IMG/VR virus record: IMGVR_UViG_3300035698_029580
From: a virus
Taxonomy: Duplodnaviria; Caudoviricetes
DNA: 64,000 nucleotides
Reading direction: 5' to 3' (one strand)
The notes below the pieces were generated by a model. It ran no database searches and was not told where the DNA came from. It saw only the letters and a list, made by a program, of their open reading frames with translations. The translations under genes and the position numbers were made by a program. Positions 7,920 to 28,881 of this stretch are shown here, piece by piece. Position 1 is the first letter of the stretch. Each line of letters begins with the position of its first letter.

Positions 7920-8460
7920 GTTTAAATACGATAAAAAATATTATTACAATTTTTTTTATACTCATTCTCACACAGCAAAATTAATATCTGATATTAGGTG
8001 GAATTTTATTTCTTATTTAAAACCTAAAATAGTTTTGGACTATGGAGCGGGATGTGGTTTTTTAAGTAAATATGCACCAAGTGATATAGTTATGGATTCT
8101 TATGATATAGGTATGTTAAATGGAGAATCCTATCCTCAGACAGGTATACTTCATGATAAGTATGATTTAATATTTTGTAATGATGTATTAGAGCACGTTG
8201 ATTGGGAGAGTGAACCAGATAAAAAAATGGAAGAGATGTTTTTAAAGACAAAATATATTTGTGCTAGTGTACCAATTATAGCAGAAGATAAGAAATTAGA
8301 AGAATGGAAACATTATAAACCTGGAGAACATCTTACCAATTTTGATTATAAAACAATAATTAGTTTTTTTGTATCACGTGGATTTTCCGTAATTAAATGG
8401 GGTTTTCCAGAATGTCCTCCGAGAGAAGATGTTGCCACAATAATTGTTGAGAATAAATGA
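7903..8460 (+). CDS. class I SAM-dependent methyltransferase
   Basis: VLDYGAGCG; YDLIFCNDVLEHV. Confidence 0.85.
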   Translation: MKENYKFKYDKKYYYNFFYTHSHTAKLISDIRWNFISYLKPKIVLDYGAGCGFLSKYAPSDIVMDSYDIGMLNGESYPQTGILHDKYDLIFCNDVLEHVDWESEPDKKMEEMFLKTKYICASVPIIAEDKKLEEWKHYKPGEHLTNFDYKTIISFFVSRGFSVIKWGFPECPPREDVATIIVENK

Positions 8461-12083: not shown

Positions 12084-12094
12084 TATAAAACAAA

Positions 12095-13081
12095 ATGAAA
12101 AATAATTATGCCATTTTTGTTTCTTCTAATAACCAATATCTATCATTTCTAAATACTTTATTAAATAGCTTAGATATTAATAATATTGATGTAGATGTTT
12201 TTCTGATCCATAATGATATTAATCAAGATTATCTTTCTTCTCTTGCAAAATTTAATTTTCCAATTAATATAATTCCTATAGAAAGATCTGATTTTAATAT
12301 TGATCCATCTAATGAACATAATAATAACCTTTATCTGAAACAAACTAGGTTCAAATATATACGAGAGTATGGAACATTATATAAAGCCATTTGCATGTTG
12401 GACGCAGATATGTTTGTTACAACTCCTAATTTTATGAATTTGTTTCATTTGGTTGAAAATACAAATCTAATGATCGGATGTAATGAAAGATTTAAATGGA
12501 CCTTTGATGAGAGATTTACTTTTGAAGAAAAATCTTTATTTACCAATTCTATAAAAGCTTATAAATTTCATTGTTCTGTGCCTATTATATTTGATTTAAA
12601 TAAGTGGTTAGATGTTTTTGATTTTTATAATAAAATTGCATTTAACACATTTGAGAAAAAAAGAGATGGAGAAATAAAATCAGCAGGAGATATCTATTGT
12701 TGGAATATGTCTGTATATAAAAATAATAGACAAGATGATATAATTTTATTTCCTATGGAAACTATGACACAAGTTCATTATACTAATCTTTTTCCTTGGA
12801 GTAATATTAAGAAGATTAATGATAAATGGTGGACTGCTAATGGAGATGAAGTATTTACTATTCATGGACGAGTGGGAAGAAAAGCATGGTATGATGGACA
12901 TTTAAATAATTTAGAAAAAAATAAAGAAAAATATTCTGAAAAATATTTTAATCAAATAAAAAATATTGCAATTAATACTATGAGATCAATTCAAAGAGAA
13001 TGGTATTATTTAAATTTTTCTCATAAATTAAATCTTTATAATTTCTTGCCCGTTGATGATTATTGGGAAACACTTAAATAA
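12095..13081 (+). CDS. GT8-like glycosyltransferase
   Basis: LNTLLNSL, CMLDADMF (DxD). Confidence 0.65.
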   Translation: MKNNYAIFVSSNNQYLSFLNTLLNSLDINNIDVDVFLIHNDINQDYLSSLAKFNFPINIIPIERSDFNIDPSNEHNNNLYLKQTRFKYIREYGTLYKAICMLDADMFVTTPNFMNLFHLVENTNLMIGCNERFKWTFDERFTFEEKSLFTNSIKAYKFHCSVPIIFDLNKWLDVFDFYNKIAFNTFEKKRDGEIKSAGDIYCWNMSVYKNNRQDDIILFPMETMTQVHYTNLFPWSNIKKINDKWWTANGDEVFTIHGRVGRKAWYDGHLNNLEKNKEKYSEKYFNQIKNIAINTMRSIQREWYYLNFSHKLNLYNFLPVDDYWETLK

Positions 13082-13252: not shown

Positions 13253-14059
13253 ATGAGTCAGAGAGTAGAACTACTGGTAATCGACCCTCAGACGGATTTT
13301 TGTGATCCAGACAAGGGGTCTTTGTATGTCAAGGGAGCAGAAGAAGACATGCAGAGATTAGCAAAATTGGTTGATTTAAGAGGTAATAAATTTAAGGAAA
13401 TACATGTTACCTTGGATTGTCATAATTCTGTAGATGTAGCTCATCCTTGTTTTTGGGTTGATAGTAAGGGTTCTAATCCCGCTCCATTTACAATTATTTC
13501 AGCTAATGATGTAAAAGATGGAAAATGGATACCTGTCTTTCCCCAGTATAGGGAGAGAATGGTACAGTATGTAGAAGGACTGGAAAATAGTGGTAGGTAT
13601 CCTCTATGTGTTTGGCCGCCGCACTGTCTGATTGGTAGTGTTGGTAATGCAGTATATCCTCCTTTGTATGAATCTCTTTTGAAGTGGGAGAGTCTTAGAC
13701 CGTGGAATGTAAGATATGTCAGTAAGGGTTCTAATCCTTTTACTGAACATTATTCTGCTGTTAAAGCTGAGGTACCTGATACTGCTGATGCTTCTACTCA
13801 ACTTAATGTTGATTTTATTAATACTTTGATGAAAGCTGATGTAGTAGCAATTGCTGGAGAAGCCGGGAGTCATTGTTTGGCGAATACGGTTCGTGATATC
13901 GCCTCGGGATTCGGAGATGATAGTGCTATTAGCAAATTAGTTCTTCTTGAAGATGCCACATCTCCTGTTTCTGGTTTTGAGCAATTTCAGATTGATTTTA
14001 TTAAAGAAATGAAGGCCAAAGGTATGAAAACTTCAACTACTGTAGATTTTTTGGCATAA
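13253..14059 (+). CDS. pncA: nicotinamidase (isochorismatase family)
   Basis: IDPQTDFC, DCH, WPPHC, KG..EHYS, GEAGSHC. Confidence 0.85.
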   Translation: MSQRVELLVIDPQTDFCDPDKGSLYVKGAEEDMQRLAKLVDLRGNKFKEIHVTLDCHNSVDVAHPCFWVDSKGSNPAPFTIISANDVKDGKWIPVFPQYRERMVQYVEGLENSGRYPLCVWPPHCLIGSVGNAVYPPLYESLLKWESLRPWNVRYVSKGSNPFTEHYSAVKAEVPDTADASTQLNVDFINTLMKADVVAIAGEAGSHCLANTVRDIASGFGDDSAISKLVLLEDATSPVSGFEQFQIDFIKEMKAKGMKTSTTVDFLA

Positions 14060-14078: not shown

Positions 14079-14831
14079 ATGAACTCTAAAAATTTGCAAA
14101 GTAATAATTTGGAATCTCATTCTCTTTCTACTGGTAGTTTTGGCTATTCAGCAGCAGGATTAGAAGATTTGGGAGCCACAGAATATACCTTGGTTACTAT
14201 TGTGGTAGACACAAGTGGTTCTGTTGCATTTTTCAAAAAAGATATGGAAAAGGCTATTATGGAAGTAGTTAGTTCATGTAAATACTCCAAACGTTCAGAT
14301 AACTTAATGATTCGTTTTGTTACGTTTCATAATGATATGACGGAGGAACATGGATTTAAATTACTTTCAGATTGTGATGCTTCTAATTATGATGATTGTC
14401 TTATGGTAGGAGGATCAACAGCATTGTTTGATGCTTCTCAAAATAGCATTGAAGCCACAAGAGATTATGGTAAAAAACTTGTTGATAATGATTTTGATGT
14501 GAATGGTATTATTTTCATCATCACAGATGGAGATGATAATTCTTCTACTATGACTGCTGATGGAGTAAAGAAAAGTTTAGCAGAAGTTTTAAGAACTGAA
14601 GCTCTTGAATCTTTGATGACAATTTTAATTGGTGTCGGAGTTGGAGGATACCCTGGAATTCAAAAGTATTTGAATGATTTTCAAAAAGATGCTGGTTTAA
14701 CTCAATATGTCAACATCAAAGATGCTGATGAAAAATCATTAGCTAAATTAGCTCAATTTATTTCTAAATCAATTTCGTCTCAATCTAATGCTTTGGGTAG
14801 TGGCGGAGAGAGTCAACCTTTGACATTTTAA
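14079..14831 (+). CDS. vWA domain protein (TerY/YegL-like)
   Basis: MIDAS DTSGS, GGSTALFDA, ITDGDDN. Confidence 0.85.
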   Translation: MNSKNLQSNNLESHSLSTGSFGYSAAGLEDLGATEYTLVTIVVDTSGSVAFFKKDMEKAIMEVVSSCKYSKRSDNLMIRFVTFHNDMTEEHGFKLLSDCDASNYDDCLMVGGSTALFDASQNSIEATRDYGKKLVDNDFDVNGIIFIITDGDDNSSTMTADGVKKSLAEVLRTEALESLMTILIGVGVGGYPGIQKYLNDFQKDAGLTQYVNIKDADEKSLAKLAQFISKSISSQSNALGSGGESQPLTF

Positions 14832-14837
14832 AAGAGA

Positions 14838-14996
14838 AGTCTTGTGGCGGAAGGGTAGACGCAGGGTGATTAGCCAGTCACCTGTTACAGTGAAGCGTTG
14901 TAGCATCGACATGCATGGCAGATATAGTTTGGCTGATTTTTATCTGTTCTGGTGCTATTCGGTAGTAGCGTGCAGGTTCGAGTCCTGCCAAGGCTT
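14838..14996 (+). ncRNA. tRNA-Leu-like RNA with enlarged anticodon loop and ~85-nt variable arm
   Basis: Acceptor AGTCTTG/CAAGGCT, D-arm TGGCGGAAGGGTAGACGC, stem GGGTG/CACCT around ATTAGCCAGT, T-arm GCAGG-TTCGAGT-CCTGC; no encoded CCA. Confidence 0.7.
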
Positions 14997-15045
14997 ATTA
15001 AATAATGTAAACTATTAATATTATATTTTGTAGAAAGGTAATAAC

Positions 15046-15957
15046 ATGTTATTTTCTACTGACTGTGCATTTAGAATTGGTTCTACTCATAAAATTTGTC
15101 AAGATTATGGTATATCTGGTACGGTTTGTGATACAGCATATGCCATAATTGCTGATGGTTGTTCTGGTTCAGATCTTTCTGAATTTGGTTCTAAATTATT
15201 GTGCAAAGCAATAGAAAATGAAATTGTAGAAGATGAGTTTCAAAATTTTACTTCTAATAACAGTGGTTATAGAATAAATTCTGAGATTAGTCTTAGCAAG
15301 GTTTTTACTACTCTTTTTGATATAGGTAATAAATTAAAAATGCCTGACTATTGGCTAGATGCAACTTTAGCCTATGCAGTTGCAAAAAAAGGTGTGGCAC
15401 AAATATATCTTTATGGAGATGGGGTTATAGTTAGGGAATGGCCTGATGGAACATTTACTGTAACTAGTGTTGAGTTTCCTTCAGGCTACCCATTTTTTCT
15501 TAATTATATAACAACATCTAATAGAAAGAGATTTGAAAAGTGGAAATCTATTCCTAATCACAAAAAAGTGGTACTTACTTATCATTTAGATAAAAAGGGA
15601 AATTTAGAAGATACAGAAGAAAAATATTATGATTTATCTTCATGTGATAACGAAAAAGATTTACCATTTGAAATGTCAATATTAGATTTTGAGAACTCAA
15701 AATTGGCATTATTTACAGATGGGATAAAAAGTTTTTTTAGAATAGCACAAACAGATACATCAAAAGTAAATGTACCAGTTTCAATGCTTGATATTATTCC
15801 TTCTTTAATGAAAATTAAAAGTTTTCAAGGACAATTCGTTAATAGGCGTTTAAACAAATTTTTACAAAAAGAAGATGTTTTACATTTTGATGATGTTACA
15901 ATGGCTGTAATTAAGATGGAAGAAAATCTATTACATTTTAATGATGTTGTAGATTAA
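15046..15957 (+). CDS. PP2C-like protein phosphatase (YegK-like)
   Basis: GSTHKICQDY, IIADGCSGS, LFTDGI, DDVT. Confidence 0.85.
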   Translation: MLFSTDCAFRIGSTHKICQDYGISGTVCDTAYAIIADGCSGSDLSEFGSKLLCKAIENEIVEDEFQNFTSNNSGYRINSEISLSKVFTTLFDIGNKLKMPDYWLDATLAYAVAKKGVAQIYLYGDGVIVREWPDGTFTVTSVEFPSGYPFFLNYITTSNRKRFEKWKSIPNHKKVVLTYHLDKKGNLEDTEEKYYDLSSCDNEKDLPFEMSILDFENSKLALFTDGIKSFFRIAQTDTSKVNVPVSMLDIIPSLMKIKSFQGQFVNRRLNKFLQKEDVLHFDDVTMAVIKMEENLLHFNDVVD

Positions 15958-15989
15958 TGATGTTATGATGATTTTAATAAAGATGGAAG

Positions 15990-17696
15990 ATGCAGATGAA
16001 ATTAATTGTTCAGGGAAAAGGAATAGTTGATCTAGATAAAAGATATTTTCTAGATTCAGGGGGAGAAGGAAATATTTACGCTCGTAAAGGAGTCGTTTAT
16101 AAGATTTATCATGAGCCTTCTAGATGTATACAATTTGCTAAGATGCAAGAACTTTCATTGATTACTGATCCTAATGTAATCATTCCAAATAATATGCTTC
16201 TTAATAGTCGTAATAAACCCATAGGTTATACAATGAAGCATGTTAAAAATACTTTTGCTCTTTGTCAACTTTTTACAAAATCGTTTCGTGATCGTAATCA
16301 GGTTACAAACGAACAAATTGCAAAAATTGTTTTACAAATGAGACAAATGGTACATCATATTCATTCAAATAAAATACTAATTGTTGATTTGAATGAAATG
16401 AATTGTTTGGTAAGCGATGATTTTAGAACTGCTTATTTCATTGATACAGATAGCTATCAAACTCCTTCTTTTCCTGCTACTGCTATTATGGAAACAATAA
16501 GAGATAGACATTCTGATAATTTTAGTGAAGAAACAGATTGGTTTGCCTTTGGTATTGTTAGTTTTCAATTGTGGATAGGTATCCACCCATATAAAGGAAA
16601 ACATGCTACCATCAAAACTTTAGATGATAGAATGAAAGCTAATATACCTGTTTTTCATAAAGATGTTAGTTTCCCCAAGGTTTGTCAACCATTTGATATC
16701 ATACCTCAGACATTTAAAGATTGGTATAAAGCAATTTTCTATGATGGCAAAAGATTGCCTCCCCCCAAGAATATGCAGGATATTATTGTTATTACTCCTG
16801 TTAGACAGGAAATTTCTGGAACAGATAATTTTGATATAATTGAAATATTGAAATTTGATAATGATGAATATGTAGTTGATTTTTTATCAGCAAATGGAGT
16901 AAGGTCTGTTCTCACTAATAAAGCAATCTATAAGGATTATAAATGGGTTAAAAATCAGAGAGACAAGCAATCTAAAATTTGTGTTACACCACAATATAAT
17001 AGATTAATAAAAGCATCTGTGGTAAATTATCAATTACATTTATATGATGAGACATTGCAAAAACCAATTGATTTTTTAGCACAAGTTGAAAAAATAATGA
17101 CATACCAAGGAAGATTATTTGCTAAATATGAAGACAAAATTTTGGAAATAGAGTTTATAGAATTACCTAATAAAACTCTTGCTGGAGCAAAAATTATTAC
17201 TTCAGTTATGGCTCAAGCCACAAAGTTCTATGAAGGTGTGGCTATTCAGAATATACTGGGTAGTTATGTTGCTGGTATTTTTGATAAGCCATTTAATTGT
17301 TATCAGATAAATTTGGACCAATTAAATGGATATAAAATTATTAATGCCAAATACAGTGATAATATTTTAATGGTAGTTGGACAGGTTCTTTTGGGAAAAA
17401 GGTCTGGAAAATATGATAAATTTATTTATTGTTTTTCTTCTAATTTTCAAGGTTGCACTACAAGGATTATAGAAGACGTTTCGTATTTGGGAGTTAATTT
17501 TGTAGTTTTAGAAAATGGAGTTGTTGTTCATATAAGTGATGATGAGCAAATAGAAATTTTTAGCAATAAAAAAGGGCATTCTTCTTTGAAAGTGATTAAC
17601 GATCCGGTAATAGGGGAAGATATGAAACTCTATAGAGATGAAGTAAAAGTTATTTTTGTTAAAGATAATAAGTTGTTTAGAATAAAAGTGAAGTAA
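15990..17696 (+). CDS. Ser/Thr kinase (YegI-like) with C-terminal beta-rich domain
   Basis: GGEGNIY, VYKIY, DLNEMN, IDTDSY, TDWFAF, GIHPYKG. Confidence 0.85.
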   Translation: MQMKLIVQGKGIVDLDKRYFLDSGGEGNIYARKGVVYKIYHEPSRCIQFAKMQELSLITDPNVIIPNNMLLNSRNKPIGYTMKHVKNTFALCQLFTKSFRDRNQVTNEQIAKIVLQMRQMVHHIHSNKILIVDLNEMNCLVSDDFRTAYFIDTDSYQTPSFPATAIMETIRDRHSDNFSEETDWFAFGIVSFQLWIGIHPYKGKHATIKTLDDRMKANIPVFHKDVSFPKVCQPFDIIPQTFKDWYKAIFYDGKRLPPPKNMQDIIVITPVRQEISGTDNFDIIEILKFDNDEYVVDFLSANGVRSVLTNKAIYKDYKWVKNQRDKQSKICVTPQYNRLIKASVVNYQLHLYDETLQKPIDFLAQVEKIMTYQGRLFAKYEDKILEIEFIELPNKTLAGAKIITSVMAQATKFYEGVAIQNILGSYVAGIFDKPFNCYQINLDQLNGYKIINAKYSDNILMVVGQVLLGKRSGKYDKFIYCFSSNFQGCTTRIIEDVSYLGVNFVVLENGVVVHISDDEQIEIFSNKKGHSSLKVINDPVIGEDMKLYRDEVKVIFVKDNKLFRIKVK

Positions 17697-17971: not shown

Positions 17972-19021
17972 ATGAAAATATTAGAAAATTCAACTATTAA
18001 AAGAGTAAAAAGTGAAAAGTATAATTATATTTTTTCTAAAAAAACTGGTTCTTTTTTAAGATGGGGAAAAACTTTAGAAGATGATCCTGAGATGTCTCCT
18101 GCAGGTCCAGAACTCGCGGATATTGAAATAACTACAATATGTCATGGAGTAAAAGGTAAACTTTGTGATTGTTGTTATAAAGCAAATAATCCAAATGGCA
18201 AGAATATGAGTTTTGAAACATTTAAAAAATTATTTCATTCTTTGCCCAAAAATCTTACTCAAATTGCGTTCGGATCTGGATCCTCAGCTATGGAAAATCC
18301 TGATTTATTTAAAATGATGGCTTATTGTCGGGAAAATGATTATAATTATGTTGTTCCTAATATAACTGTTTCTGATATTACTGAAGAAACTGCCAAAAAA
18401 CTAGCAAAGATTTGTGGTGCAGTTGCCGTCAGTAAATATGATGATAAAAATGTTTGTTATGATATAGTTAAGATGTTGACTGACAATGGGTTATCACAAA
18501 CAAATATTCATATTTGTATTTGTGAAGAAAATTATGAACAGACTTTAGAGGCATGTAAGGATTATTTAACTGATCCTCGATTAAAAAAACTTAAATCCTT
18601 TGTATTTCTCTCTCTCAAGCAAAAAGGAAGAGGAATAAAACTTACACCTTTAAGTATGGAAAAATTTAAGGAATTGGTGAATTTTTGTATTGACAATAAT
18701 GTTCCAATAGGTTTTGATTCATGTTCAGCTATGAAGTTTCTTTCTTCAGTGAAAAATCATGAAAAATTTGATCAATTTGAAATGTGTAGCGAGCCGTGTG
18801 AATCTTCGATTTTTTCGGCGTATTTTAACGTCGATGCCGAATTTTTTCCTTGTAGTTTTACTGAAGGCACTTCTGGGTGGGAAGAAGGTTTGCCTGTTAA
18901 TGGTGATTTTATAAATGATATTTGGCAGCATCCCAAAACAATAGAATTTAGAAATAAATTATTAAAAACAATTGATAATAATTCGTTTGGATGTAGAGAG
19001 TGTCCTATTTTTAAAATTTGA
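17972..19021 (+). CDS. radical SAM enzyme with SPASM/Twitch-like C-terminus
   Basis: DIEITTIC-x7-CDCCY (extended CxxxCxxC), NMSFETF, C-terminal CES..FFPCSF..IW..FR..CRECP; start moved to ATG 17972 behind AAGGA. Confidence 0.85.
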   Translation: MKILENSTIKRVKSEKYNYIFSKKTGSFLRWGKTLEDDPEMSPAGPELADIEITTICHGVKGKLCDCCYKANNPNGKNMSFETFKKLFHSLPKNLTQIAFGSGSSAMENPDLFKMMAYCRENDYNYVVPNITVSDITEETAKKLAKICGAVAVSKYDDKNVCYDIVKMLTDNGLSQTNIHICICEENYEQTLEACKDYLTDPRLKKLKSFVFLSLKQKGRGIKLTPLSMEKFKELVNFCIDNNVPIGFDSCSAMKFLSSVKNHEKFDQFEMCSEPCESSIFSAYFNVDAEFFPCSFTEGTSGWEEGLPVNGDFINDIWQHPKTIEFRNKLLKTIDNNSFGCRECPIFKI

Positions 19022-19031
19022 GGTAATAATT

Positions 19032-19136
19032 ATGAAAATTAGAAATGGTTTTGTATCTAATAGTAGTTCTACTGCATTTGTTATAGAGAATCGAACAAAT
19101 GACACAAAATATCTACTAAATTTTGTGAGGCATTGA
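19032..19136 (+). pseudogene. 34-aa SNSSS-tag ORF (copy 1), internally deleted paralog of 19393-19740
   Basis: MKIRNGFVSNSSSTAFVIENRTNDTKYLLNFVRH-stop; shifted frame reads FCEALR-stop, like FCEYLR-stop of the paralog. Confidence 0.75.
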
Positions 19137-19146
19137 GGTAAATTAA

Positions 19147-19380
19147 ATGTGTGAAACATGGTATAAAAGTTATTGCTCTAAATGTAATACTATTAATTGG
19201 ATTTGCAATGGAGACACATCAGATTTATCAGGTGTAGACATTGATGGATATAAATGCTGGAAATGTGGAAATATAAAATATTTTGGAGATGAAGAACAAT
19301 ATGAAATTGAGAGAAATATTAATGAGTGGACAAATAAAGAAGATATTTATTGGGAGTTAGGATTAGAATTTCCAAAGTAA
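19147..19380 (+). CDS. Zn-ribbon protein, paralog of 6113-6352
   Basis: WYKSYCSKCNTINW...CWKC. Confidence 0.65.
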   Translation: MCETWYKSYCSKCNTINWICNGDTSDLSGVDIDGYKCWKCGNIKYFGDEEQYEIERNINEWTNKEDIYWELGLEFPK

Positions 19381-19392
19381 AAAGGAATAATC

Positions 19393-19740
19393 ATGAAAAT
19401 TAGAAATGGTTTCGTATCAAATAGTAGTTCTACCGCATTTATTATTACTAATGATTCTCGAGAAGTAAAAACTCTTGTAGATTTTGTTACAGAAAACCCT
19501 CAATTAATAGAAAAGTTTAAAGAACAATATGGGTGGGATAAAGATGATGATCGTTTTTCTCAAGGAAATTTAATAGTTTCTGCAGAGGAAAATAATATAG
19601 AATTTCCTCCTGGGGAAAATAAATATTGTGTTTTTGGAGATGAACAAGACACTCTTATTGGTCAGGTATTTGATTATATTTTACGAGATGGTGGAAATTC
19701 TGAAAGTTTTGGTTGGAGATTTTGTGAATATTTGAGGTGA
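19393..19740 (+). CDS. SNSSS-tag protein copy 2
   Basis: MKIRNGFVSNSSSTAF. Confidence 0.85.
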   Translation: MKIRNGFVSNSSSTAFIITNDSREVKTLVDFVTENPQLIEKFKEQYGWDKDDDRFSQGNLIVSAEENNIEFPPGENKYCVFGDEQDTLIGQVFDYILRDGGNSESFGWRFCEYLR

Positions 19741-19744
19741 TATT

Positions 19745-20113
19745 ATGAAAATCAGAAATGGATTTGTTTCAAATAGTAGTTCTTCTAGTTTTATGATTAG
19801 TAAATCTGTTCTTTCTCAAGAACAGATAAGTGCTATTCATAACCATATGAATTATGCAAAAAATAATTTTCCAAATATGGTTGATAAATATTCTGGGAAA
19901 AATCAATATATTTGGTCATGGAATATTTTAGAAAATGATGAGCATATGTTTGGATTTGTTGATATGAATAACTTTGATATGAGGTATTTTTTAGAAAAAA
20001 TTGACATACTCGATAAGGATATTATTCTTAAGAGAGTATATGGCAATACATACGGAATGTCTTATCACGAAAAGATAAGTTTTATTACCAAAGAACTAAA
20101 AAAAGTTGATTAA
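19745..20113 (+). CDS. SNSSS-tag protein copy 3
   Basis: MKIRNGFVSNSSSSSF; body paralogous to 21642 (QIxAI..H.NYAKNNF..MNNFD). Confidence 0.85.
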   Translation: MKIRNGFVSNSSSSSFMISKSVLSQEQISAIHNHMNYAKNNFPNMVDKYSGKNQYIWSWNILENDEHMFGFVDMNNFDMRYFLEKIDILDKDIILKRVYGNTYGMSYHEKISFITKELKKVD

Positions 20114-20143
20114 CAATTATTTTAAATATTAGAAAGTGAAAAA

Positions 20144-20794
20144 ATGTTTAAAAAGATAAAATTATTACTAGTAATTTTTTTATTTTCTCTTCCTTCTATG
20201 GCTCTTACTGTTTCTGATGGACAATATTTTGAGACATTAGAATTCTACAACAATGATGTTGTTGACGTTTTAGGGGGAACAATAGACAACTTGACCCTCT
20301 ATGAACAAAGTCTTGCTAATGTAATAAATACAGAAGGAGATTTTCTTTCTGATGGAGCTATATGGGAAATAAATGCTTTTGATAATTCTCACATAAGTTT
20401 ATCAGGTGGCAATATTTATGAGATGAATTTATATGGGGATAGCATTACTGATGTTATAGGTGGCAGAGTAACCCTTCTAAATGTAAGTGGAAATGCAGAA
20501 TTATATTTATCTGCAGGATTATACAGAGGAACAGTGTTGGATTTAAAAGACGACACAGCACAAATTCACATGTATTGTACAGATTATAGTTTTAATCAAT
20601 TATTCCAACAGTTTAGTTTATCAGGAACATGGTCTAATGGAGATAGATTTTATATAGGTGTTGATAATGATACTTATAATAATATAAATTTTCACGTTAT
20701 AGAAAGCAATGATATTCCAGAGCCCATTATATTGTGTTTTCTTATTTTAGGAATTATAACAATTTTACAAATGGATAAATATCATGAAATTTAG
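20144..20794 (+). CDS. secreted PEP-CTERM sorting-domain protein
   Basis: Signal peptide, Gly-rich beta repeats (xxGG), C-terminal IPEP plus hydrophobic helix. Confidence 0.75.
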   Translation: MFKKIKLLLVIFLFSLPSMALTVSDGQYFETLEFYNNDVVDVLGGTIDNLTLYEQSLANVINTEGDFLSDGAIWEINAFDNSHISLSGGNIYEMNLYGDSITDVIGGRVTLLNVSGNAELYLSAGLYRGTVLDLKDDTAQIHMYCTDYSFNQLFQQFSLSGTWSNGDRFYIGVDNDTYNNINFHVIESNDIPEPIILCFLILGIITILQMDKYHEI

Positions 20795-21161
20795 AAATGG
20801 ATTTGTATCAAATAGTAGTTCTAGTAGTTTTCTTATAGTTGGAGTTGAAGACGAAAATTTAGTGGAAAAATTAAAAGCTGCTTCTTGTGGAGATATGTCA
20901 GAACGATATGTGGAATCAGATGGTAGTATACGTTATGAGACTATGGAACATGGAGTAATACATGCGGGATTGATCAATTTTTATGGAAGTTATATTCTTG
21001 AAGATTGTTATTTATCTGGAATGCCCATAGAAGATTTATTGGAAACAATGAATTTAGCAGAAATTAGGTTGCGTTTTCAAAAATGTGTTAAAGAAAAATA
21101 CAATATAAATATAGATATGTCTGAAATATGTCTACATTATGGCGAAGTGTCTGATGAATAA
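20784..21161 (+). CDS. SNSSS-tag protein copy 4
   Basis: MKFRNGFVSNSSSSSF. Confidence 0.85.
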   Translation: MKFRNGFVSNSSSSSFLIVGVEDENLVEKLKAASCGDMSERYVESDGSIRYETMEHGVIHAGLINFYGSYILEDCYLSGMPIEDLLETMNLAEIRLRFQKCVKEKYNINIDMSEICLHYGEVSDE

Positions 21162-21181
21162 TTATTTAATAGGAGAAAAAA

Positions 21182-21640
21182 ATGAAAATTAGAAATGGTT
21201 TTGTAAGTAATAGTAGTTCTTCTTCCTTTGTTATTATTGGTCATCAAATAAAAATGGGAGGTAATTATGAAAAAATTTGTCGTATTTTTTTACCAGAAGA
21301 TTTTATTGAAAAAGAAATGGATAGTTGGGATTATAATAAAATGGAGGATAAGCATCAGAAAGAAAATTTTTGGGCAGAGATTTTTTATGAGAATTTAAGT
21401 GATATAAAAAATGAATTTGTGTGCTATTCATCATATAGTATACTCGGACATAGTGAAGATTGGGAGTTTTTTGGAAAACTATTATATTATAAATATGACG
21501 ATCCAGGAATTTATGATGATATTGAAGTGAAGGCTCCTCTTTCTGAAATTATTGAGGGCATAAGAAAAGAAGTTGAGAGATTGGGAATGCAAGACCAAGT
21601 AAGTGAAATAATGATTTATAGTGGAGTTAAATCAGATTAA
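21182..21640 (+). CDS. SNSSS-tag protein copy 5
   Basis: MKIRNGFVSNSSSSSF. Confidence 0.85.
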   Translation: MKIRNGFVSNSSSSSFVIIGHQIKMGGNYEKICRIFLPEDFIEKEMDSWDYNKMEDKHQKENFWAEIFYENLSDIKNEFVCYSSYSILGHSEDWEFFGKLLYYKYDDPGIYDDIEVKAPLSEIIEGIRKEVERLGMQDQVSEIMIYSGVKSD

Positions 21641-21641
21641 A

Positions 21642-21935
21642 ATGAAAATTAGAAATGGTTTTGTTTCAAATAGCAGTTCTTCTAGTTTTGTTATTAAAAA
21701 ATATGTTTTAAGTAAAAAACAAATAGATGCTATTTATGATCATATAAATTATGCAAAAAATAATTTTTCAGAAATGGAAGAAACAAGTGATTTAAATGAT
21801 GGATCTGCATGGGTAATAGTAGAAGGTGAAAAAAAAATATATTGCAGCACATTTATGAATAATTTTGATTTACATGAGTTTTTAATAAAAATAGGTGTTG
21901 ATGATAAAGATATTCGTGACTTGGAAGTGTTTTAA
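21642..21935 (+). CDS. SNSSS-tag protein copy 6
   Basis: MKIRNGFVSNSSSSSF at ATG 21642 (ORF track start extends upstream). Confidence 0.85.
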   Translation: MKIRNGFVSNSSSSSFVIKKYVLSKKQIDAIYDHINYAKNNFSEMEETSDLNDGSAWVIVEGEKKIYCSTFMNNFDLHEFLIKIGVDDKDIRDLEVF

Positions 21936-21951
21936 TCTAAAGGAGAAATCA

Positions 21952-22299
21952 ATGAAATTTAGACAAGGTTTTGTATTAAATAGTGGTACAACTAGGGTTG
22001 ATGTTTATGGGACTATTATAAAGGCTGAAGATATGGAAGAAATTCTTGTAAAAAAAAATATTGTACAAAAAAATTCTGAAGGTGATCGTGATATATATGA
22101 TTTTCTTAATGACTTAACAGAAAAAGAAAAAATAGTTTGGGATCATCAAGAAGAACCTGAGGGAGAATATTATATTGGATTAAAAATAACAGAAATGGAA
22201 GACAATGAAACTCTTGACCAATTTAAAAAACGAATAGGAAACAAAATAGAAGAAATATTCGGTGAAAAATTATATGTTGAATTAATTCTTTCCACTTAA
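21952..22299 (+). CDS. SNSSS-tag protein copy 7 (degenerate tag)
   Basis: MKFRQGFVLNSGTT at ATG 21952 behind AAGGAG. Confidence 0.8.
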   Translation: MKFRQGFVLNSGTTRVDVYGTIIKAEDMEEILVKKNIVQKNSEGDRDIYDFLNDLTEKEKIVWDHQEEPEGEYYIGLKITEMEDNETLDQFKKRIGNKIEEIFGEKLYVELILST

Positions 22300-22321
22300 T
22301 CATTGTTAAAGGAGATTTAAA

Positions 22322-22690
22322 ATGAAATTTAGACAAGGATTTGTATCAAACAGTAGTACCACGAGCTTTTGTATTTGTGGAATTAGTACAAATGAAGAAC
22401 AGTTAGAAGATTGGTTAAAAGATAAAGTTTCCGAAGAGGAGAAAGAAGAAGATGATTATGAGGTATATGATATAGTCGAAGAACTTTGTGACAAAGAAGG
22501 TCTTTCAGTGCATGCGGAACCCGATAGTTATTATTCTTATTGGATAGGACTTGATATACAAAAATTGGATGATAATGAAACGTTGAAAGATTTTAAAAAC
22601 AAAACAAAAGAAAAACTTAAAAAAATATTTGGAGATAATATTGATAAAAAAATCATTAATATTATTGAAAAAGCTTGGCATGATGGTTAA
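22322..22690 (+). CDS. SNSSS-tag protein copy 8
   Basis: MKFRQGFVSNSSTTSFCICGI. Confidence 0.85.
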   Translation: MKFRQGFVSNSSTTSFCICGISTNEEQLEDWLKDKVSEEEKEEDDYEVYDIVEELCDKEGLSVHAEPDSYYSYWIGLDIQKLDDNETLKDFKNKTKEKLKKIFGDNIDKKIINIIEKAWHDG

Positions 22691-22720
22691 AACATATGAT
22701 ATTCTTTAAAGGAGAAATTA

Positions 22721-23071
22721 ATGAAATTTAGACAAGGTTTTGTATCAAACAGTAGTACCACGAGCTTTTGTATTTGTGGAATTTGTCTAGATAGAAAAAA
22801 TATGGAAGAATTAATAGAAGAAAAAAATGTTGATGGAAAAGATATAAATGAGAGATTGTTGGAAAAACTTTGTAAGGCAGAGGGACTTGCCAGTATTGCT
22901 GATCCAGAAGATGAGTATTATTATATTGGAATTAATGTAGAAGATATGGATGAGGATAAGACAATAAGAGATGTTAAAAAAGAAGCAAAGGAAAAAATAA
23001 AAAAATTGTTCGGAGATAATGCTGATAAACATAATGTTAGAGTCATTACTGATGGTTGGTATAATGGTTGA
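22721..23071 (+). CDS. SNSSS-tag protein copy 9
   Basis: MKFRQGFVSNSSTTSFCICGI; first ~60 nt nearly identical to copy 8. Confidence 0.85.
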   Translation: MKFRQGFVSNSSTTSFCICGICLDRKNMEELIEEKNVDGKDINERLLEKLCKAEGLASIADPEDEYYYIGINVEDMDEDKTIRDVKKEAKEKIKKLFGDNADKHNVRVITDGWYNG

Positions 23072-23121
23072 TTGTAAGAGTTTTAACTAAGTATTTTATT
23101 TATTTTTGAAAAGGAAAAGTT

Positions 23122-23817
23122 ATGAGTGGAAAAGTGCAAGTTCATCATTTAATTATTTTGGACAAAAGTAGTTCAATGCTAGAAGTTTGTAGTGAAACTA
23201 TTGATGGATGTAATAAACAATTTGATGTAATTCGTAAAATGTCAGAAGAAAATCCAGAACAAGAACATTTTGTTTCTATGGTCATATTTAGCTATTCTCA
23301 TAAAATAGATATGGAAACAATATGGATGAAAAAATCAGATGAAGTGGAAAATATTAATGAAGAAAGTTATGTTCCTCAGGGATACACGGCTTTATTTGAT
23401 GCCATAGGTAAAGGCGTGACAAAACTACAAACAGAAATACAGGAACAATTAAATAATAGAGGTGCTAGAGTTGTTGTTACAATATTGACAGATGGTTATG
23501 AAAATAATTCTCAAGAATTTACTGGTAAGAAGATTAAATCTTTAATAGATGAACATCAAAAAGGTGGTTTATGGACAATTACGATGGCTGGATGTACTGA
23601 TGATGTATTCAATGTAGCAGATAATCTTAATATTTGCAGAGGAAATGTTCTTAAATATGATATGGGAGCAGTAGGAACTACTAATGCTTTTGCTAAAATG
23701 GCAAAGAGTCGTTGCATGTATTGTTCTTCCATAGGGACAGATGTAGAATTAAAAGCGACATCAAGTTATTATTCTCAAGATGAAGAAAAGAAAGATGAAG
23801 AAAAGAAAGATGATTAA
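23122..23817 (+). CDS. vWA domain protein
   Basis: MIDAS DKSSS, TALFDAIG, LTDGYEN. Confidence 0.85.
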   Translation: MSGKVQVHHLIILDKSSSMLEVCSETIDGCNKQFDVIRKMSEENPEQEHFVSMVIFSYSHKIDMETIWMKKSDEVENINEESYVPQGYTALFDAIGKGVTKLQTEIQEQLNNRGARVVVTILTDGYENNSQEFTGKKIKSLIDEHQKGGLWTITMAGCTDDVFNVADNLNICRGNVLKYDMGAVGTTNAFAKMAKSRCMYCSSIGTDVELKATSSYYSQDEEKKDEEKKDD

Positions 23818-24074
23818 AATTTTCTAATTGGACATCTAAAGTGGGGGTCCTGGAATATAATTTCTAGGACCTTTCCACTTTTTTTACATCTTTTTTTAAC
23901 TGTTTTTTGTGGAGGTCTAGTTGTTTTTGTCATAAAGTAGATTTTATCAACATGAGGACAACTTTTACATATTTTTGGTCTAATATCTAGAAGTTTAATT
24001 CTTTTGTCTTTTAGTATTGGTTTAGCACTTTTATTTTTTATTGCAGAAGCTCTTTTTCCACAGCCACATCCCAT
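23814..24074 (-). CDS. small basic Cys-rich protein
   Basis: MGCGCGK, CKSC, C..CPIRKF; last gene of the minus-strand array. Confidence 0.65.
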   Translation of the reverse strand: MGCGCGKRASAIKNKSAKPILKDKRIKLLDIRPKICKSCPHVDKIYFMTKTTRPPQKTVKKRCKKSGKVLEIIFQDPHFRCPIRKF

Positions 24075-24850
24075 TATCTAACTCCTCTCATTTTTTGGAT
24101 TAGGTTATTTCTTCTAATTCTTCCTACTTGATGATACCATTTTGAATCTACCATTTCATCGGCAGCTTTTTGGAAATCTCTTCTTATTAAAGCTTGTCTA
24201 AATCTTTTAAACTGTCTTAATCTATTTGGTCCCATAGCAAATGCCATATCAATAATAACTTGTTGAACAGCATCATCATATGTTTCAAAATTGGGTAAAA
24301 AAGAATGTGCTATATCGGAGGCTTCGAAAAAGGTATATTCAAATAATTTATTTATTTGTTCGTCTGTAAGACCAACTTTTCCATTAATAATGTCATTATA
24401 ATTTAGTCCAAAACTTTCTATTTTTTGTTTAGCATCTGGTCTATTTAACATATATCCTATTCCTATTGTTTTGTTTCCTAATGGACCGGGATATACAAAA
24501 TTTCTTCTTCCCTCATGCTGAGATATCATATCTCTAGTTTTTTGAATAAAATTATTTTGATCTGTATTTTTTCTTTCTACGGAAGTTCCTTGGGGATTTT
24601 CTTGTGTTGCAGGAATATTTTGTTGTGTTATTTCTTGTGTTTGTTGAGGGGTTGTATTTTCTTGTTTTTTTATTTCTTGGACACCTTGTATTACTGTTTG
24701 GGGAGATTGTTTAAAAAGATCTTTAACTTCTAGAATTCCTATTCCCCATAGACCTGCCAAACCTAATAAAGCTGTTAGTCCAGTCATTTGAACAAATCTA
24801 TTCCATCTAAACTCTTCTTCTGCTATTTTTGTTTGATTGTACCAATTCAT
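24074..24850 (-). CDS. GH24 (T4-like) lysozyme with MNWY leader and TM segment
   Basis: HEG..VY...GNKTIGIG, DMAFAMG, AADEMVDSKWYHQV. Confidence 0.85.
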   Translation of the reverse strand: MNWYNQTKIAEEEFRWNRFVQMTGLTALLGLAGLWGIGILEVKDLFKQSPQTVIQGVQEIKKQENTTPQQTQEITQQNIPATQENPQGTSVERKNTDQNNFIQKTRDMISQHEGRRNFVYPGPLGNKTIGIGYMLNRPDAKQKIESFGLNYNDIINGKVGLTDEQINKLFEYTFFEASDIAHSFLPNFETYDDAVQQVIIDMAFAMGPNRLRQFKRFRQALIRRDFQKAADEMVDSKWYHQVGRIRRNNLIQKMRGVR

Positions 24851-24851
24851 A

Positions 24852-25214
24852 TTAAATTGTTGTTTCTCCTATATATCCACCTTCGGCAGAAAAAGTTATT
24901 ATTTTAATATTATTCCCAAATTCTTTTTTTAATTTATTAATAATAACATTGGGAATATCCCAATACCATTCATAAGGAGTCATAATGGATACCTCCATAG
25001 TGTTCGGATCATATCTACCTCGGAATTTTTTTTCGAATGCTTTTTCTAAGCCTCCTTCCATCATATTTCCATGTCCTTCAATATACCATCCTTCTTCGAC
25101 TTTAAAATTACTACCATCGGGATTACTCATCCATAACATATTTTCATTACCAGAGCCAACTCCAGAATGCCCTATATCTCCGTAATTTTTTTGTGCTAAT
25201 TTATACCAATTCAT
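24852..25214 (-). CDS. MNWYK-leader protein, IGH/GRYD family
   Basis: MNWYKLAQ start at 25214 (ATGA overlap with upstream stop); paralog of 28122 and 28498. Confidence 0.8.
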   Translation of the reverse strand: MNWYKLAQKNYGDIGHSGVGSGNENMLWMSNPDGSNFKVEEGWYIEGHGNMMEGGLEKAFEKKFRGRYDPNTMEVSIMTPYEWYWDIPNVIINKLKKEFGNNIKIITFSAEGGYIGETTI

Positions 25215-25855
25215 TTTCTTATCCATAATGTTAAATCGTCTTTAACCTCTTCCCAGTGAGGTATATAAATTTTTTCTATTTCTTTCCATTCTGAATCAAG
25301 AAGATTATAAAATTGGTCATTAGCTGTACATCCTTTCCATTCTCCCACCAAAATTAGTTTATTTCCTTCAAAAAATGCTAATGCTTCATATGCCATGGGA
25401 CTACCGCAGGGAGGCCAAACCATCATTAATGTATCAAAATGACCATATTTTTCAATAGCATCTAAATGATCCATTTTCTCTATGTCTGTAAATCTTTTAC
25501 TCTCAGGCTTATAATATTTTTCATTTTGTCTTTCTATAACACCTAAATCTGTAGCTGTTACAGATATTCCTTCGTCTCTCATTAATTTAGCCCAGAGCCC
25601 ATACCCTGACCCTATTTCTAATACATTGCCTTGTTCTACGAAAATTTTTATTTTTTCGATTGCTTCTTTATCTGGGACTCCCCATCCATATTCTTTTATA
25701 TATCTGTTTCTTCTCAACCATGGACGAGTAAGATCAGAGTTCCAAAAGTTAAGTTCTTCTTCTGAAGGTTCAGATGCATATTCTTTACCTTCAGGCCCAA
25801 ATTTATTTAAATCTTCATAAATATCAGCTATTTTTTTATTTTTATACCAATTCAT
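25211..25855 (-). CDS. MNWYK-leader SAM-dependent methyltransferase
   Basis: VLEIGSGYGLW, VTATD, VWPP, LVGE. Confidence 0.8.
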   Translation of the reverse strand: MNWYKNKKIADIYEDLNKFGPEGKEYASEPSEEELNFWNSDLTRPWLRRNRYIKEYGWGVPDKEAIEKIKIFVEQGNVLEIGSGYGLWAKLMRDEGISVTATDLGVIERQNEKYYKPESKRFTDIEKMDHLDAIEKYGHFDTLMMVWPPCGSPMAYEALAFFEGNKLILVGEWKGCTANDQFYNLLDSEWKEIEKIYIPHWEEVKDDLTLWIRK

Positions 25856-26876
25856 ATTCTACCTCTCCTATTAAATCTACCGTCTTTCCACTCCATGTTC
25901 TCCATTCCCCTAATGCCGATACTTTATATCCTAGTGATCCAGGTATAGATCTGAATTCTAATATAGCAATTTGGTCTTCTGGAACACTATATAAACCTTG
26001 TTCATCACTAAATGCAAATAATCCATATTCTGGACCACCTGCCTGTTCTCTCATCCACGCCCATGTATGATATGCTTTAAATTTTCTATAAACTTTTTCT
26101 TTGTTAGTTAATATTTTTTTAAATTTTCTGTATGTTGGAGGAATTCTATTCCCTGTTTCTGATTCTTCTATAGGTCCCCAATTTTCTTTTTTATTTTTAT
26201 TAAATTCTTTTACTGTTGATGGGAATAATGTTGCACTCGTGATTTCATAGTCAGAATTAACATAATTTATTATCTCTTCTACGGTTCCTGTCCCTACTGC
26301 GTGTTTTTGAGCTTGTATCCATTCATTTACCCAAGGTTTTTTTGCTCCGATTCCATTTTGAGCTTGCATTATCATATCTTCTATAGATAATTCTCCAAAC
26401 ATGACCTTTCTGCCCTCAATCAAAGTTCTATATATATCTTGAGATACTTTTAAATTTTCTGTGAAACTAATTGTATCACTACTTCCTCCTCCTAGCCCTC
26501 TTCCTCCTTTTTGAGATAGATCATCTCTAGTTCTTAATTGATCTTTTATCACTTCATTTTTAGATGTTGTTACATGATATAAAGTTTCAGGGAGAGGAAG
26601 GAGTTGTCCATGACCAGGAATTTTATATGAATTCTCTTGATATCTATCTTGAGTTAAATCATAACCTAAATTAAATGCTTCTGATGGACTTATTTTTCCA
26701 GTTGCTAAAGATTTAGATATCTCACTATCCCACTCTTTTTGTTTTGTTCTAATATTATCAAATATTATAGTTTTCTGTTCATCGGATAAATTATCATAAT
26801 CATGAGGATAGTTTCTACCAGAATAATCATTTCTAGAAATTTGTAATATATTTTGTGCTAATTTATACCAATTCAT
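25842..26876 (-). CDS. MNWYK-leader protein with possible ADP-ribosyltransferase fold
   Basis: TLYHVT...GGRGLGGG..TISFT. Confidence 0.6.
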   Translation of the reverse strand: MNWYKLAQNILQISRNDYSGRNYPHDYDNLSDEQKTIIFDNIRTKQKEWDSEISKSLATGKISPSEAFNLGYDLTQDRYQENSYKIPGHGQLLPLPETLYHVTTSKNEVIKDQLRTRDDLSQKGGRGLGGGSSDTISFTENLKVSQDIYRTLIEGRKVMFGELSIEDMIMQAQNGIGAKKPWVNEWIQAQKHAVGTGTVEEIINYVNSDYEITSATLFPSTVKEFNKNKKENWGPIEESETGNRIPPTYRKFKKILTNKEKVYRKFKAYHTWAWMREQAGGPEYGLFAFSDEQGLYSVPEDQIAILEFRSIPGSLGYKVSALGEWRTWSGKTVDLIGEVEYELV

Positions 26877-26879
26877 TAT

Positions 26880-27608
26880 TTATCCATAATTAATTTTTTT
26901 AACAGGAAGATTGTTTGTCTCAATATAATTAATCATCTTTTTTAACCTGTCTATATAACTGCTTAATTGACTATAACTTCTTCCATAGTCATACATTGCA
27001 GATTGTCCAGGAGTTTTTTCTTCAGTTGGTTCTTGGGTATAGGTATTTATTGTGAAATCATTGTCTTCTATATTTTTTATAGCAGATTTTAATTCATCTA
27101 TATTTAATGTCCCTCCATAGGGATCTAAATTACTCATTCCTTCATTTTGCAACAATTGTATCAATGCTACACTATTTGCATTTGCTATATTTATTTCTGG
27201 CAATTTTTCTAGATCTGTTGTGTTGTTTTCTTCAACTAATACTCTAGCAACATTTATGTCTCTTGCACCGGACTTATTTATTTCTAAAAATTTTAACTTA
27301 ATTAAACCCATTCTATTATTATTATATTGGTCTACTATATTTTTTATAATTCCACTTTTTATATTAGGATTTTCTAGATAAATATTAATTTGCCCAGTAG
27401 GAGCAAAAGTATCTCCAGAACTCATATCAGGATCAACATCTTGCCACCCAATACCTAATTTTTGTCCAATATTCATCTCATAAATTATAAACTTGGATAA
27501 ATCACTACAAACTTCTAATTTATTCATAGGTTGAGTTATTTTATCAGAGCCTTCAATCCAGAAGGTGACACTAGACTGTTTATAAAATGCTAATTTATAC
27601 CAATTCAT
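26880..27608 (-). CDS. MNWYK-leader hypothetical protein
   Basis: MNWYKLAF start at 27608 (ATGA overlap). Confidence 0.75.
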   Translation of the reverse strand: MNWYKLAFYKQSSVTFWIEGSDKITQPMNKLEVCSDLSKFIIYEMNIGQKLGIGWQDVDPDMSSGDTFAPTGQINIYLENPNIKSGIIKNIVDQYNNNRMGLIKLKFLEINKSGARDINVARVLVEENNTTDLEKLPEINIANANSVALIQLLQNEGMSNLDPYGGTLNIDELKSAIKNIEDNDFTINTYTQEPTEEKTPGQSAMYDYGRSYSQLSSYIDRLKKMINYIETNNLPVKKINYG

Positions 27609-28111
27609 TCGGGCCATACTCCAAATCTTCTTAAGAATTTTTCCATTTTATTACCTATTAAAATTTGTACAGGGCCAATATTTCCTTCAGAATAATAATC
27701 TCCTGGTTCTACACTTGGGTATCTATTGTCTGTTTCTCCCTGCCAATCACCCAAAGGACCCTCTTCTTCTTCTGGTCTATGTTCAAATTGATCTTCCCCT
27801 TCTTTTATAATAACTAACATACCATAACTTTTTAATTCATTAGGAGTTACGTCTCCCCATTTTTTATTTAACATTTTCATTACTGCGTATTGCATAGCAT
27901 TAACTGCTCTTTGTAATCCTTGTTTGTCTGTAGCATAAGTCACATCAACAGGATCAAACTCTATTCCTGCAGATTCATATTCTCCGGCATAAGAATCTGA
28001 AACAAAATCACCTGTATCAGGGATGAGTCCTATATCTTTTATGGAATCGTAGTTATTAATAGAGGTTCCGTGATAAAGAGTTCTGGATTTTGCTTTTTTA
28101 TACCAATTCAT
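27605..28111 (-). CDS. MNWYK-leader protein with possible ADP-ribosyltransferase fold
   Basis: TLYHGTS....SIKDIGLIP...VTYAT. Confidence 0.6.
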   Translation of the reverse strand: MNWYKKAKSRTLYHGTSINNYDSIKDIGLIPDTGDFVSDSYAGEYESAGIEFDPVDVTYATDKQGLQRAVNAMQYAVMKMLNKKWGDVTPNELKSYGMLVIIKEGEDQFEHRPEEEEGPLGDWQGETDNRYPSVEPGDYYSEGNIGPVQILIGNKMEKFLRRFGVWPE

Positions 28112-28121
28112 TTATTCTTTT

Positions 28122-28496
28122 TCAATAAGTATATATTTGAGTTATGTTAGGGAATTTACTGTAGAGTTTATTTACTAAACGAGAAGGAACACCGCGGAAT
28201 GCATTTAATCCTTTTAAGGGTACAATTATACTTAATTTTCCAGTACTAGTTTCATATCTACCTTGGTATGTTCTACTAAAAGAAAAATTTTCATCATTAA
28301 AAACATAACCAAAAGCATCATCATGAGTGGGTTCTTCTTCTGTTTCTGGACGAACTGCTAGAATTCCATTGTAATATATCCAAAGATAATTATTTAGTGT
28401 GTCTTCGTCCTCAGTCAGTTTAGCATGACCAATATTAAGATAAGATGGTTTATCTAGTGTTTGTTGAGATAATATTGTTCTTTTATACCAATTCAT
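28122..28496 (-). CDS. MNWYK-leader protein, IGH/GRYD family
   Basis: YLNIGH, HDDAF, YQGRYE, KLYSKFP. Confidence 0.8.
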   Translation of the reverse strand: MNWYKRTILSQQTLDKPSYLNIGHAKLTEDEDTLNNYLWIYYNGILAVRPETEEEPTHDDAFGYVFNDENFSFSRTYQGRYETSTGKLSIIVPLKGLNAFRGVPSRLVNKLYSKFPNITQIYTY

Positions 28497-28497
28497 T

Positions 28498-28881
28498 TTA
28501 ATTATAATAAAATATTTGTTTTATGTCGGGAAATTTTTTATAAAGTTTACTAATTAAAGCATTAGGTGGTTCTCTATGTGCATTTACTCCGGTAACTGGT
28601 TTGACGACACTCAAATAACCTGTTACTGGATCAAATCTACCATTATATATATAATCACTATCTATGTTTGGGAATGCTTCTCTATGATGTTCTTTTCCTT
28701 TTTGTTCTTTAATAACATCTATTCTTCCATTTAAATATACCCACATATATCCCACATCTTTTCTGTCATAAGGATTTTGAATATTATGTACATTTCTTTT
28801 GTAACTTCTATGTCCTATCTCGAAATACATAGGTTGTTCTTCTAATTCTTGAGAATATATTATTCTTTTATACCAGTTCAT
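28498..28881 (-). CDS. MNWYK-leader protein, IGH/GRYD family
   Basis: YFEIGH, HREAF, YNGRFD, KLYKKFP. Confidence 0.8.
   Translation of the reverse strand: MNWYKRIIYSQELEEQPMYFEIGHRSYKRNVHNIQNPYDRKDVGYMWVYLNGRIDVIKEQKGKEHHREAFPNIDSDYIYNGRFDPVTGYLSVVKPVTGVNAHREPPNALISKLYKKFPDIKQIFYYN

Follow-up and report, generated by a model that had tools for sequence, protein, structure and literature searches.

A tagged gene array behind a radical SAM gene

We analyzed a 64,000-nucleotide stretch of viral DNA (Caudoviricetes; IMG/VR record IMGVR_UViG_3300035698_029580), called here the window, in which a gene for a radical S-adenosylmethionine (SAM) enzyme (17972–19021, + strand, 349 amino acids (aa)) stands directly before an array of small genes that begin with nearly the same 16 residues. 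This shared start, which we call the tag, leads from a basic beginning (K2–R4) through F7-V8-S9-N10 into a run of serines. Nine such starts had been listed in an initial annotation of the sequence, and all nine were recovered where it had placed them, on the + strand and behind the radical SAM gene, with a vWA gene (23122–23817, +) closing the run. A regular expression for the core motif matched 8 times in the window, against a mean of 0.15 (maximum 2) in 60 codon shuffles; the ninth tag, that of copy 7, lies outside these 8 matches and is degenerate, as had been noted. With a GC content of 30%, the window resembles a portion of a large, AT-rich phage genome; DNA related to it was found in metagenomes from salt lakes, the best share (0.56) possibly being that of the source sample itself.

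All features of the array lie on the + strand. Copy 1 (19032–19136) is a 34-aa stub of a copy-2-type gene with an intact tag; a relative with 87% identity carries a complete gene of 160 aa at this site, the two being 76% identical over 33 aa. It is followed by copy 2 (19393–19740; 115 aa, body family 6), copy 3 (19745–20113; 122 aa, family 1), copy 4 (20784–21161; 125 aa, family 13), copy 5 (21182–21640; 152 aa, the small family 43), copy 6 (21642–21935; 97 aa, family 1), and three members of family 0, namely copy 7 (21952–22299; 115 aa), copy 8 (22322–22690; 122 aa), and copy 9 (22721–23071; 116 aa). The tag of copy 7 carries the changes S9L, S12G, S15R, and F16V, and its protein also lacks the conserved C-terminal end of family 0. 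The order and starts of the nine genes stand, but the run is not continuous, being interrupted by two untagged open reading frames (ORFs). One (19147–19380) encodes a Cys-rich, Zn-ribbon-like protein of 77 aa that was found in 3 loci and is not a conserved partner. The other (20144–20794) encodes a 216-aa protein with a signal-like start and a hydrophobic end, which we take to be PEP-CTERM-like in look; it had no Pfam match, occurs in 1 other locus, and is a passenger. A terminator-like hairpin of 13 pairs with a T tail (23843–23874) ends the run, and a promoter scan gave a result at chance level. In the closest relative, a second, different radical SAM gene is inserted inside the tag array (L085:4866–5855).

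We scored 968 tags without fixing any position. Asn10 was present in 967 of them, Ser11 in 966, Ser12 in 963, Arg4 in 961, Ser9 in 958, and Phe7 in 952, and the substitutes at position 7 were mostly aromatic (5 Tyr, 4 Trp, 2 His, 4 Leu, and 1 Met). Serine was strongly favored over threonine at positions 11, 12, and 15, and the start codon lay six residues ahead of F7 in nearly all tags. A tag profile matched 23,787 clusters at 50% identity, with the motif N-terminal in nearly all among the matches listed. Ser, Gly, and Asn codons vary among the window copies, and AGY and TCN codons are both used at every tag serine (668 tags), which agrees with the earlier proposal that selection acts on the peptide rather than on the DNA. 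No Pfam model, NCBIfam model, or solved structure names the tag. A glycyl-radical site (an R-V-x-G-aromatic loop with an invariant target Gly) was considered and rejected, as G6 is replaced by Asp in one group of tags (FVT, described below) and by Val or Thr in another (FET), and the spacing differs. Several proteins (P0354–P0362) have two tag matches and are probably fused or read-through tandem copies.

The protein bodies behind the tag are diverse, as had been proposed. Where at least three body types had been distinguished in the window, BLAST gave five families (copies 1/2, 3/6, 4, 5, and 7/8/9), that of copy 4 being probably related to that of copies 7/8/9 (HH probability 84). Overall, the bodies fell into 190 BLAST clusters, and 5 of 276 pairs among 24 profiles matched above probability 50. 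By these profile comparisons, through which alone a shared fold across families was judged, the bodies appear to make up at least 20 families. Tagged proteins measure 85–270 aa (median 134 aa); 95% of the bodies are net negative, in many families the extreme C-terminus is a conserved motif particular to the family, and one family is Cys-rich with a different C-terminus. Among 140 representative tagged proteins, one had a known Pfam domain (a leucine-rich repeat) and none had a sulfatase Pfam.

In a structural model of copy 8, residues 1–12 are unstructured, with the predicted local distance difference test score (pLDDT) lowest at 9–11, residues 13–23 form the first strand, and the last strand reaches the C-terminus. 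Fold searches gave weak ferredoxin-like matches (best Z 5.0), BFVD matches at E >0.02, and Atlas matches at TM 0.7 only to unnamed viral clusters, a result that does not imply a new fold. In a ferredoxin-like topology the first and last strands are adjacent, so the Ser run would adjoin the conserved C-terminus. The objection that the tag is simply the first strand of one fold therefore holds for residues 13–16 alone, residues 1–12 lying outside the fold in this model. When body homologues were collected without the tag, 106 of 114 still carried it, the others being mostly cut gene calls; of 620 body matches within loci, 18 had no tag, including a few apparently intact genes. The description of the tag as portable fits the diversity of the bodies but applies only within limits: residues 13–16 belong to the first strand of the body, bodies almost never occur untagged, and known Pfam domains are nearly absent from them. 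In one 106-aa protein (P0289), a start like the N-terminal sheet of the enzyme is fused to a family-0 body in the place of the tag; this may be a deletion or an assembly chimera.

The enzyme and its linkage to the tag

The window enzyme matches phrog_7293 (E 3e-102) and, weakly, the Pfam family Radical_SAM. We found more than 2,100 relatives; 173 GenBank records hold such relatives, among them the "putative radical SAM" gene of phages RB16 and KP15 and of Vibrio phage D479. Across 204 enzymes, C57, C65, and C68 are kept at 97–100% and form a three-Cys SAM-cluster motif after strand 1, spaced CX7CX2C in the window enzyme and CX3CX2C in many relatives. C251, C276, C294, and C344 are kept at 100%, with no further invariant Cys; other C-terminal Cys are variable (C341 76%, C338 26%). 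An auxiliary-domain beta-hairpin lies at E282–292, and homologues match PF13186. By the definitions of auxiliary clusters in Twitch and SPASM domains (PMC6231123), four invariant C-terminal Cys correspond to one fully ligated auxiliary cluster, and the enzyme is of the Twitch type, the cluster itself being predicted from sequence. Of the initial SPASM/Twitch assignment, radical SAM and Twitch hold; SPASM does not, since four C-terminal Cys are invariant, not seven or eight. A Cys-dependent epimerase was rejected because there is no spare invariant Cys (C162 78%).

The enzyme model (pLDDT 96) shows a four-strand N-terminal sheet, a partial TIM barrel, (beta/alpha)6, that carries C57/C65/C68, and the Twitch-type domain. 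Its top structural match was SuiB (Z 23.4, root-mean-square deviation 3.6, 310 residues; model residues 4–349 on chain residues 3–436), followed by SkfB (Z 21.5). The anaerobic sulfatase-maturating enzyme (anSME/AtsB, 18.8), CteB, and ChlB (18.4) matched at Z 18–19 without the N-terminal part, and the small-molecule enzymes viperin, BlsE, and MoaA at Z 16–17. Because the structural alignment with SuiB and SkfB includes the N-terminal sheet, residues 2–31 would stand in for the sheet of a RiPP recognition element (RRE; RiPP, a peptide made on the ribosome and then modified post-translationally), the helices of that element being absent from the model. These matches bear out the initial view of a peptide-maturase-like enzyme. 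NCBIfam triceptide maturase models gave no match, and the scores of NirJ2 and TIGR04053 were weak, far below cut-off.

Tag and enzyme proved to be linked in both directions when their co-occurrence was checked genome-wide, as the initial annotation had suggested. Loci fetched by the enzyme held tags in 151 of 186 cases, with 513 of 516 tags on the enzyme strand; after enzymes of >75% identity were collapsed, complete tagged genes lay within 10 kb in 145 of 173 loci. Loci fetched by the tag had an enzyme within 10 kb in 45 of 74 cases, and among the 28 records behind the remaining loci the enzyme was found elsewhere in 11, among them each of the 4 records with a completeness of 90% or more. KP15 and RB16 each have two tags, separated from the enzyme by ~20 kb; a large vWA gene stands between the two tagged genes of KP15 (L261:3327–5543). 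For one tagged protein of KP15, relatives occur in 175 GenBank records of one phage group, with a host spread nearly that of the enzyme's 173. In a 793-kb Promethearchaeota (Asgard) contig, one tagged gene faces the enzyme as a convergent pair (L264:7655–9178, the same place as L176), and that genome holds no other tag. In another Promethearchaeota bin (L177:2640–3908), a 423-aa tagged protein fused to leucine-rich repeats lies beside the enzyme.

Two further tag types, FVT and FET, accompany related enzymes, which form clades B and C beside clade A of the FVS tags. A permissive enzyme profile, run on arbitrary pieces of 1–14 kb, found a related enzyme in 62 of 114 FVT stretches and 66 of 116 FET stretches. 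Enzyme scores separated by tag (FVS >250 bits, FVT 124–163, FET 20–42). Clade B and C loci were picked by tag and most clade A loci by enzyme; with this choice, clade A loci held 661 FVS-type and 2 FVT tags (661/663), clade B loci 156 of 156 FVT and no FVS tags, and clade C loci 110 of 110 FET tags. The FVS body families include 164 of 235 FVT-tag bodies and 79 of 194 FET-tag bodies. Since body families are common to all tag types while the tags partition by enzyme clade, these sequence comparisons indicate that tag type tracks the enzyme clade, not the body family. Fourteen residues are common to all three enzyme clades, among them D50, N130, T132, S154, H180, K216, and D249. Clade B has more Cys than clade A, and its auxiliary-cluster content may differ. 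Clade C was found in Lak phages and in Ma-LMM01, whose gp130 carries an FET tag two genes before the enzyme.

The same pattern recurs within clade A, where tag positions 3 and 5 are shared across the body families of one genome (0.44 versus 0.295 ± 0.010; 0 of 1000 permutations), while positions 17–20 follow the body family (0.53 versus 0.21). At locus L182 a private variant of the tag occurs on three families, with differing codons, and L169 has W7/G9 on all four of its tagged genes. Residue 152 of the enzyme is other than Ala or Ser in 2 of 204 enzymes, those of L169 (W7/G9) and L045 (H7/G9), which are the only two loci with Gly9 tags. The two enzymes, which do not group as sisters in the tree, also carry changes at A150 and F21. 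In the enzyme model, barrel strand 4 contains residues 150 and 152.

A candidate maturase and competing explanations

As each tag version travels with its own enzyme version in hundreds of phages, the enzyme probably reads the tag and changes it chemically. We give a probability of roughly 0.6 to the reading that it is a dedicated maturase that binds the tag and modifies the F7–S12 stretch; that the tag is recognized directly by the enzyme is likely. The free first 12 residues would thread into the barrel, the basic start (K2–R4) would bind the RRE-like sheet or the barrel rim, the aromatic residue 7 would pack on barrel strand 4 (A150/A152), and a 5'-deoxyadenosyl radical would abstract hydrogen from the F7–S12 stretch. 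The changed end would probably come to lie beside the family-specific conserved C-terminal residues and complete a binding or catalytic site. From their size, charge, and gene turnover, we guess that the bodies, which are small, acidic, and quick to change, most probably have their targets in the host during infection.

As to the chemistry, our tentative first choice is a change at the near-invariant N10-S11-S12 that would do without an auxiliary cluster. These residues might be dehydrated or oxidized, or the backbone might be cut so that a new reactive N-terminus remains where strand 1 begins. A ring of the triceptide type that joins residue 7 to the S/T9 beta carbon, close to the F-V-S cyclophane idea of the initial annotation, is possible but rather unlikely, being weakened by the Gly9 tags of two lineages and by a sister clade without auxiliary Cys; because these fit such a ring badly, we ranked N10–S12 chemistry slightly higher. 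Some other chemistry on the tag seems improbable. A bolder and doubtful extension is that the maturase installs a new kind of reactive group built from the protein itself (such as an N-terminus produced by cleavage, dehydration, or oxidation at the N-S-S run) on tens of small families unrelated to one another, where it would form an active or binding site beside the conserved C-terminus, so that one enzyme would switch on a diversified arsenal of phage effectors through at least three orthogonal tag/enzyme pairs.

Several observations weigh against modification of the tag by a dedicated maturase. Ser codons are more alike within a genome (0.40 versus 0.28), and shared rare residues have a differing codon in only 70 of 247 cases; the likeness of codons indicates that DNA-level copying explains part of the within-genome likeness of tags. 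Residues 13–16 lie within the modeled fold, and hence some of the conservation would be structural. None of the three helices of an RRE accompanies the sheet that aligns with SuiB and SkfB at their N-termini. About 40–45% of the FVT and FET stretches, which are short arbitrary pieces, show no enzyme. No auxiliary Cys are left in clade C (median 0 Cys in the last 110 residues); judged by this loss, the clade may carry out other chemistry or none, and a purely oxidative cross-link is weakened. The correspondence at residue 152 comprises two lineages, one of them on a long branch, and was noticed post hoc.

A literature search, with most subscription journals outside its coverage, found no paper on the tag motif or the system. 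The tag/enzyme system is real, very widespread, and undescribed in the literature searched. Its predicted function is analogous to that of a RiPP maturase with many substrates, or of anSME acting on folded proteins, and on the features tested it falls outside the SPASM, classic RiPP, anSME, and glycyl-radical groups. SuiB/StrB and SkfB are its best structural matches over nearly the whole chain, and in both cases the adjacent genes share an N-terminal, leader-like peptide. As in SuiB, one Cys before the hairpin would be the first auxiliary ligand, comparable to the SuiB linker Cys (PMC6231123), its position being inferred. The phage enzyme differs from these maturases in its CX7CX2C spacing (versus CX3CX2C), in its sheet without RRE helices, and in having one auxiliary cluster or none; its partners are folded proteins of 85–270 aa from many families, and the part conserved in them would be where the reaction takes place, and not a leader that is removed from in front of a short variable core. 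Nor do the partners, folded and with the median length given above, match a classic RiPP precursor, which is short, consists of a leader and a variable core, and is released by a protease; no peptidase was found among the window neighbors, and no protease or exporter was seen.

anSME likewise is a radical SAM enzyme that alters Ser or Cys in an N-terminal motif of a folded protein. Its target motif is C/S-x-P/A-x-R. This motif is not in the tag logo, there is no sulfatase fold among the partners, and the phage enzyme has one auxiliary cluster instead of two and an extra N-terminal sheet. The aromatic-X-Ser/Thr motif of triceptide synthases (FxsB/FxSxx-COOH, ChlB, MicB) fits F7-V8-S9, position 7 being mostly aromatic, and ChlB is among the structural matches. 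In the triceptide ring, the aromatic ring is joined to the beta carbon of X3 (PMC12912966); more than 98% of tags have an aromatic-X-X3 motif with such a carbon (F-V-S/T, F-E-T), but the W-V-G and H-V-G lineages have Gly at X3 and no beta carbon for the link. In addition, the triceptide motif belongs to a C-terminal core (PMC7159879), whereas the phage motif sits six residues in from the N-terminal end of a folded protein; Asn10 varies less than Ser9, and auxiliary Cys are absent from the FET clade. In the VMAP/FtsH ternary conflict systems described by Kaur et al. 2020 (PMC7159879), which have peptide-processing modules, radical SAM genes neighbor variable proteins that have a conserved C-terminal piece in common. 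The present system is similar in that its radical SAM gene adjoins small proteins that change fast but keep one terminal piece conserved, and in a vWA gene nearby. In those systems, however, the piece is C-terminal, release is by a zincin peptidase, and the hosts are bacteria, whereas here it is N-terminal, mostly in phages, and without a peptidase.

The chief rival, itself unlikely, is that the tag is a docking peptide only, the tagged proteins being interchangeable subunits or adaptors that steer or regulate the enzyme while the radical acts on a host protein or nucleotide. Linkage and co-evolution would be explained equally well, the bodies are diverse and nearly all net negative, and viperin, BlsE, and MoaA also match the model. 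The best matches, however, are peptide maturases and include the N-terminal sheet, and the near-invariant, small, polar N10–S12 would be more like a reaction site than a docking surface. Less probable again is that the tagged proteins belong to a single ancient fold family whose conserved beginning is the tag, a first strand with a self-processing or active-site loop, with the enzyme merely in the same cassette and the likeness kept by duplication and gene conversion. Strand 1 in copy 8, the tag on most body homologues collected without it, the codons shared within genomes, and the descent of the same body families in all three clades are consistent with this. Against it stand residues 1–12 outside the fold, the 24 mostly unmatched body profiles with their Cys-rich family, the linkage that persists at 20 kb in KP15/RB16 and in the convergent archaeal pair, the rare intact untagged bodies, and a tag type that tracks the enzyme clade.

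It is very unlikely that the tag serves as a targeting or cleavage signal read by some other component, be it a protease or machinery for packaging or export, while the enzyme acts elsewhere on the same proteins or pathway: the tag is strictly N-terminal, and T4-type capsid targeting sequences are likewise shared N-terminal leaders, but no other conserved neighbor gene was found among those tested, and tag variants track enzyme variants. Least probable is the alternative raised in the initial annotation, in which the Ser run would be phosphorylated by the Ser/Thr kinase and dephosphorylated by the PP2C, both encoded with a vWA gene directly upstream and on the same strand. The tag is near-universal, but only 4 of 126 long enzyme loci have close homologues of these genes nearby; Ser is strongly preferred to Thr at 11, 12, and 15, the invariant residue is Asn, and the three genes make up a vWA-PP2C-kinase triad of the known TerY-P type, which is a module apart.

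If the enzyme modifies the tag, the system would be among the largest uncharacterized protein-modification systems, viral and acting on folded proteins, not short peptides. This would give a testable role to "hypothetical" genes of the cultured phages RB16, KP15, Vibrio D479, and Ma-LMM01, and of Lak phages, and three naturally orthogonal tag/enzyme pairs could serve site-specific protein labeling.

Neighboring modules in the window

The vWA, PP2C, and Ser/Thr kinase genes of the triad (14079–17696) precede the enzyme in few relatives (for example, L007, L074, and L101), and close homologues of the downstream vWA gene lie near only 3 or 4 of the 126 long enzyme loci. Not being conserved neighbors, vWA and kinase were rejected as core partners. 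Beyond the array, eight consecutive genes (24074–28881, − strand), and one more at 49215 (+), have an MNWYK-like N-terminal start on unrelated bodies, one of them a phage lysozyme and one methyltransferase-like; this start resembles a capsid-targeting leader of internal head proteins. The window also holds a phage NAD salvage set, composed of an isochorismatase-like gene (nicotinamidase-like, weak match; 13253–14059), an NAD synthase (30289–31059), and a nicotinate phosphoribosyltransferase (35131–36357), which possibly counters NAD-depleting defenses. A run of genes at 7903–13081 resembles, from its sequence, glycosyltransferases and methyltransferases.

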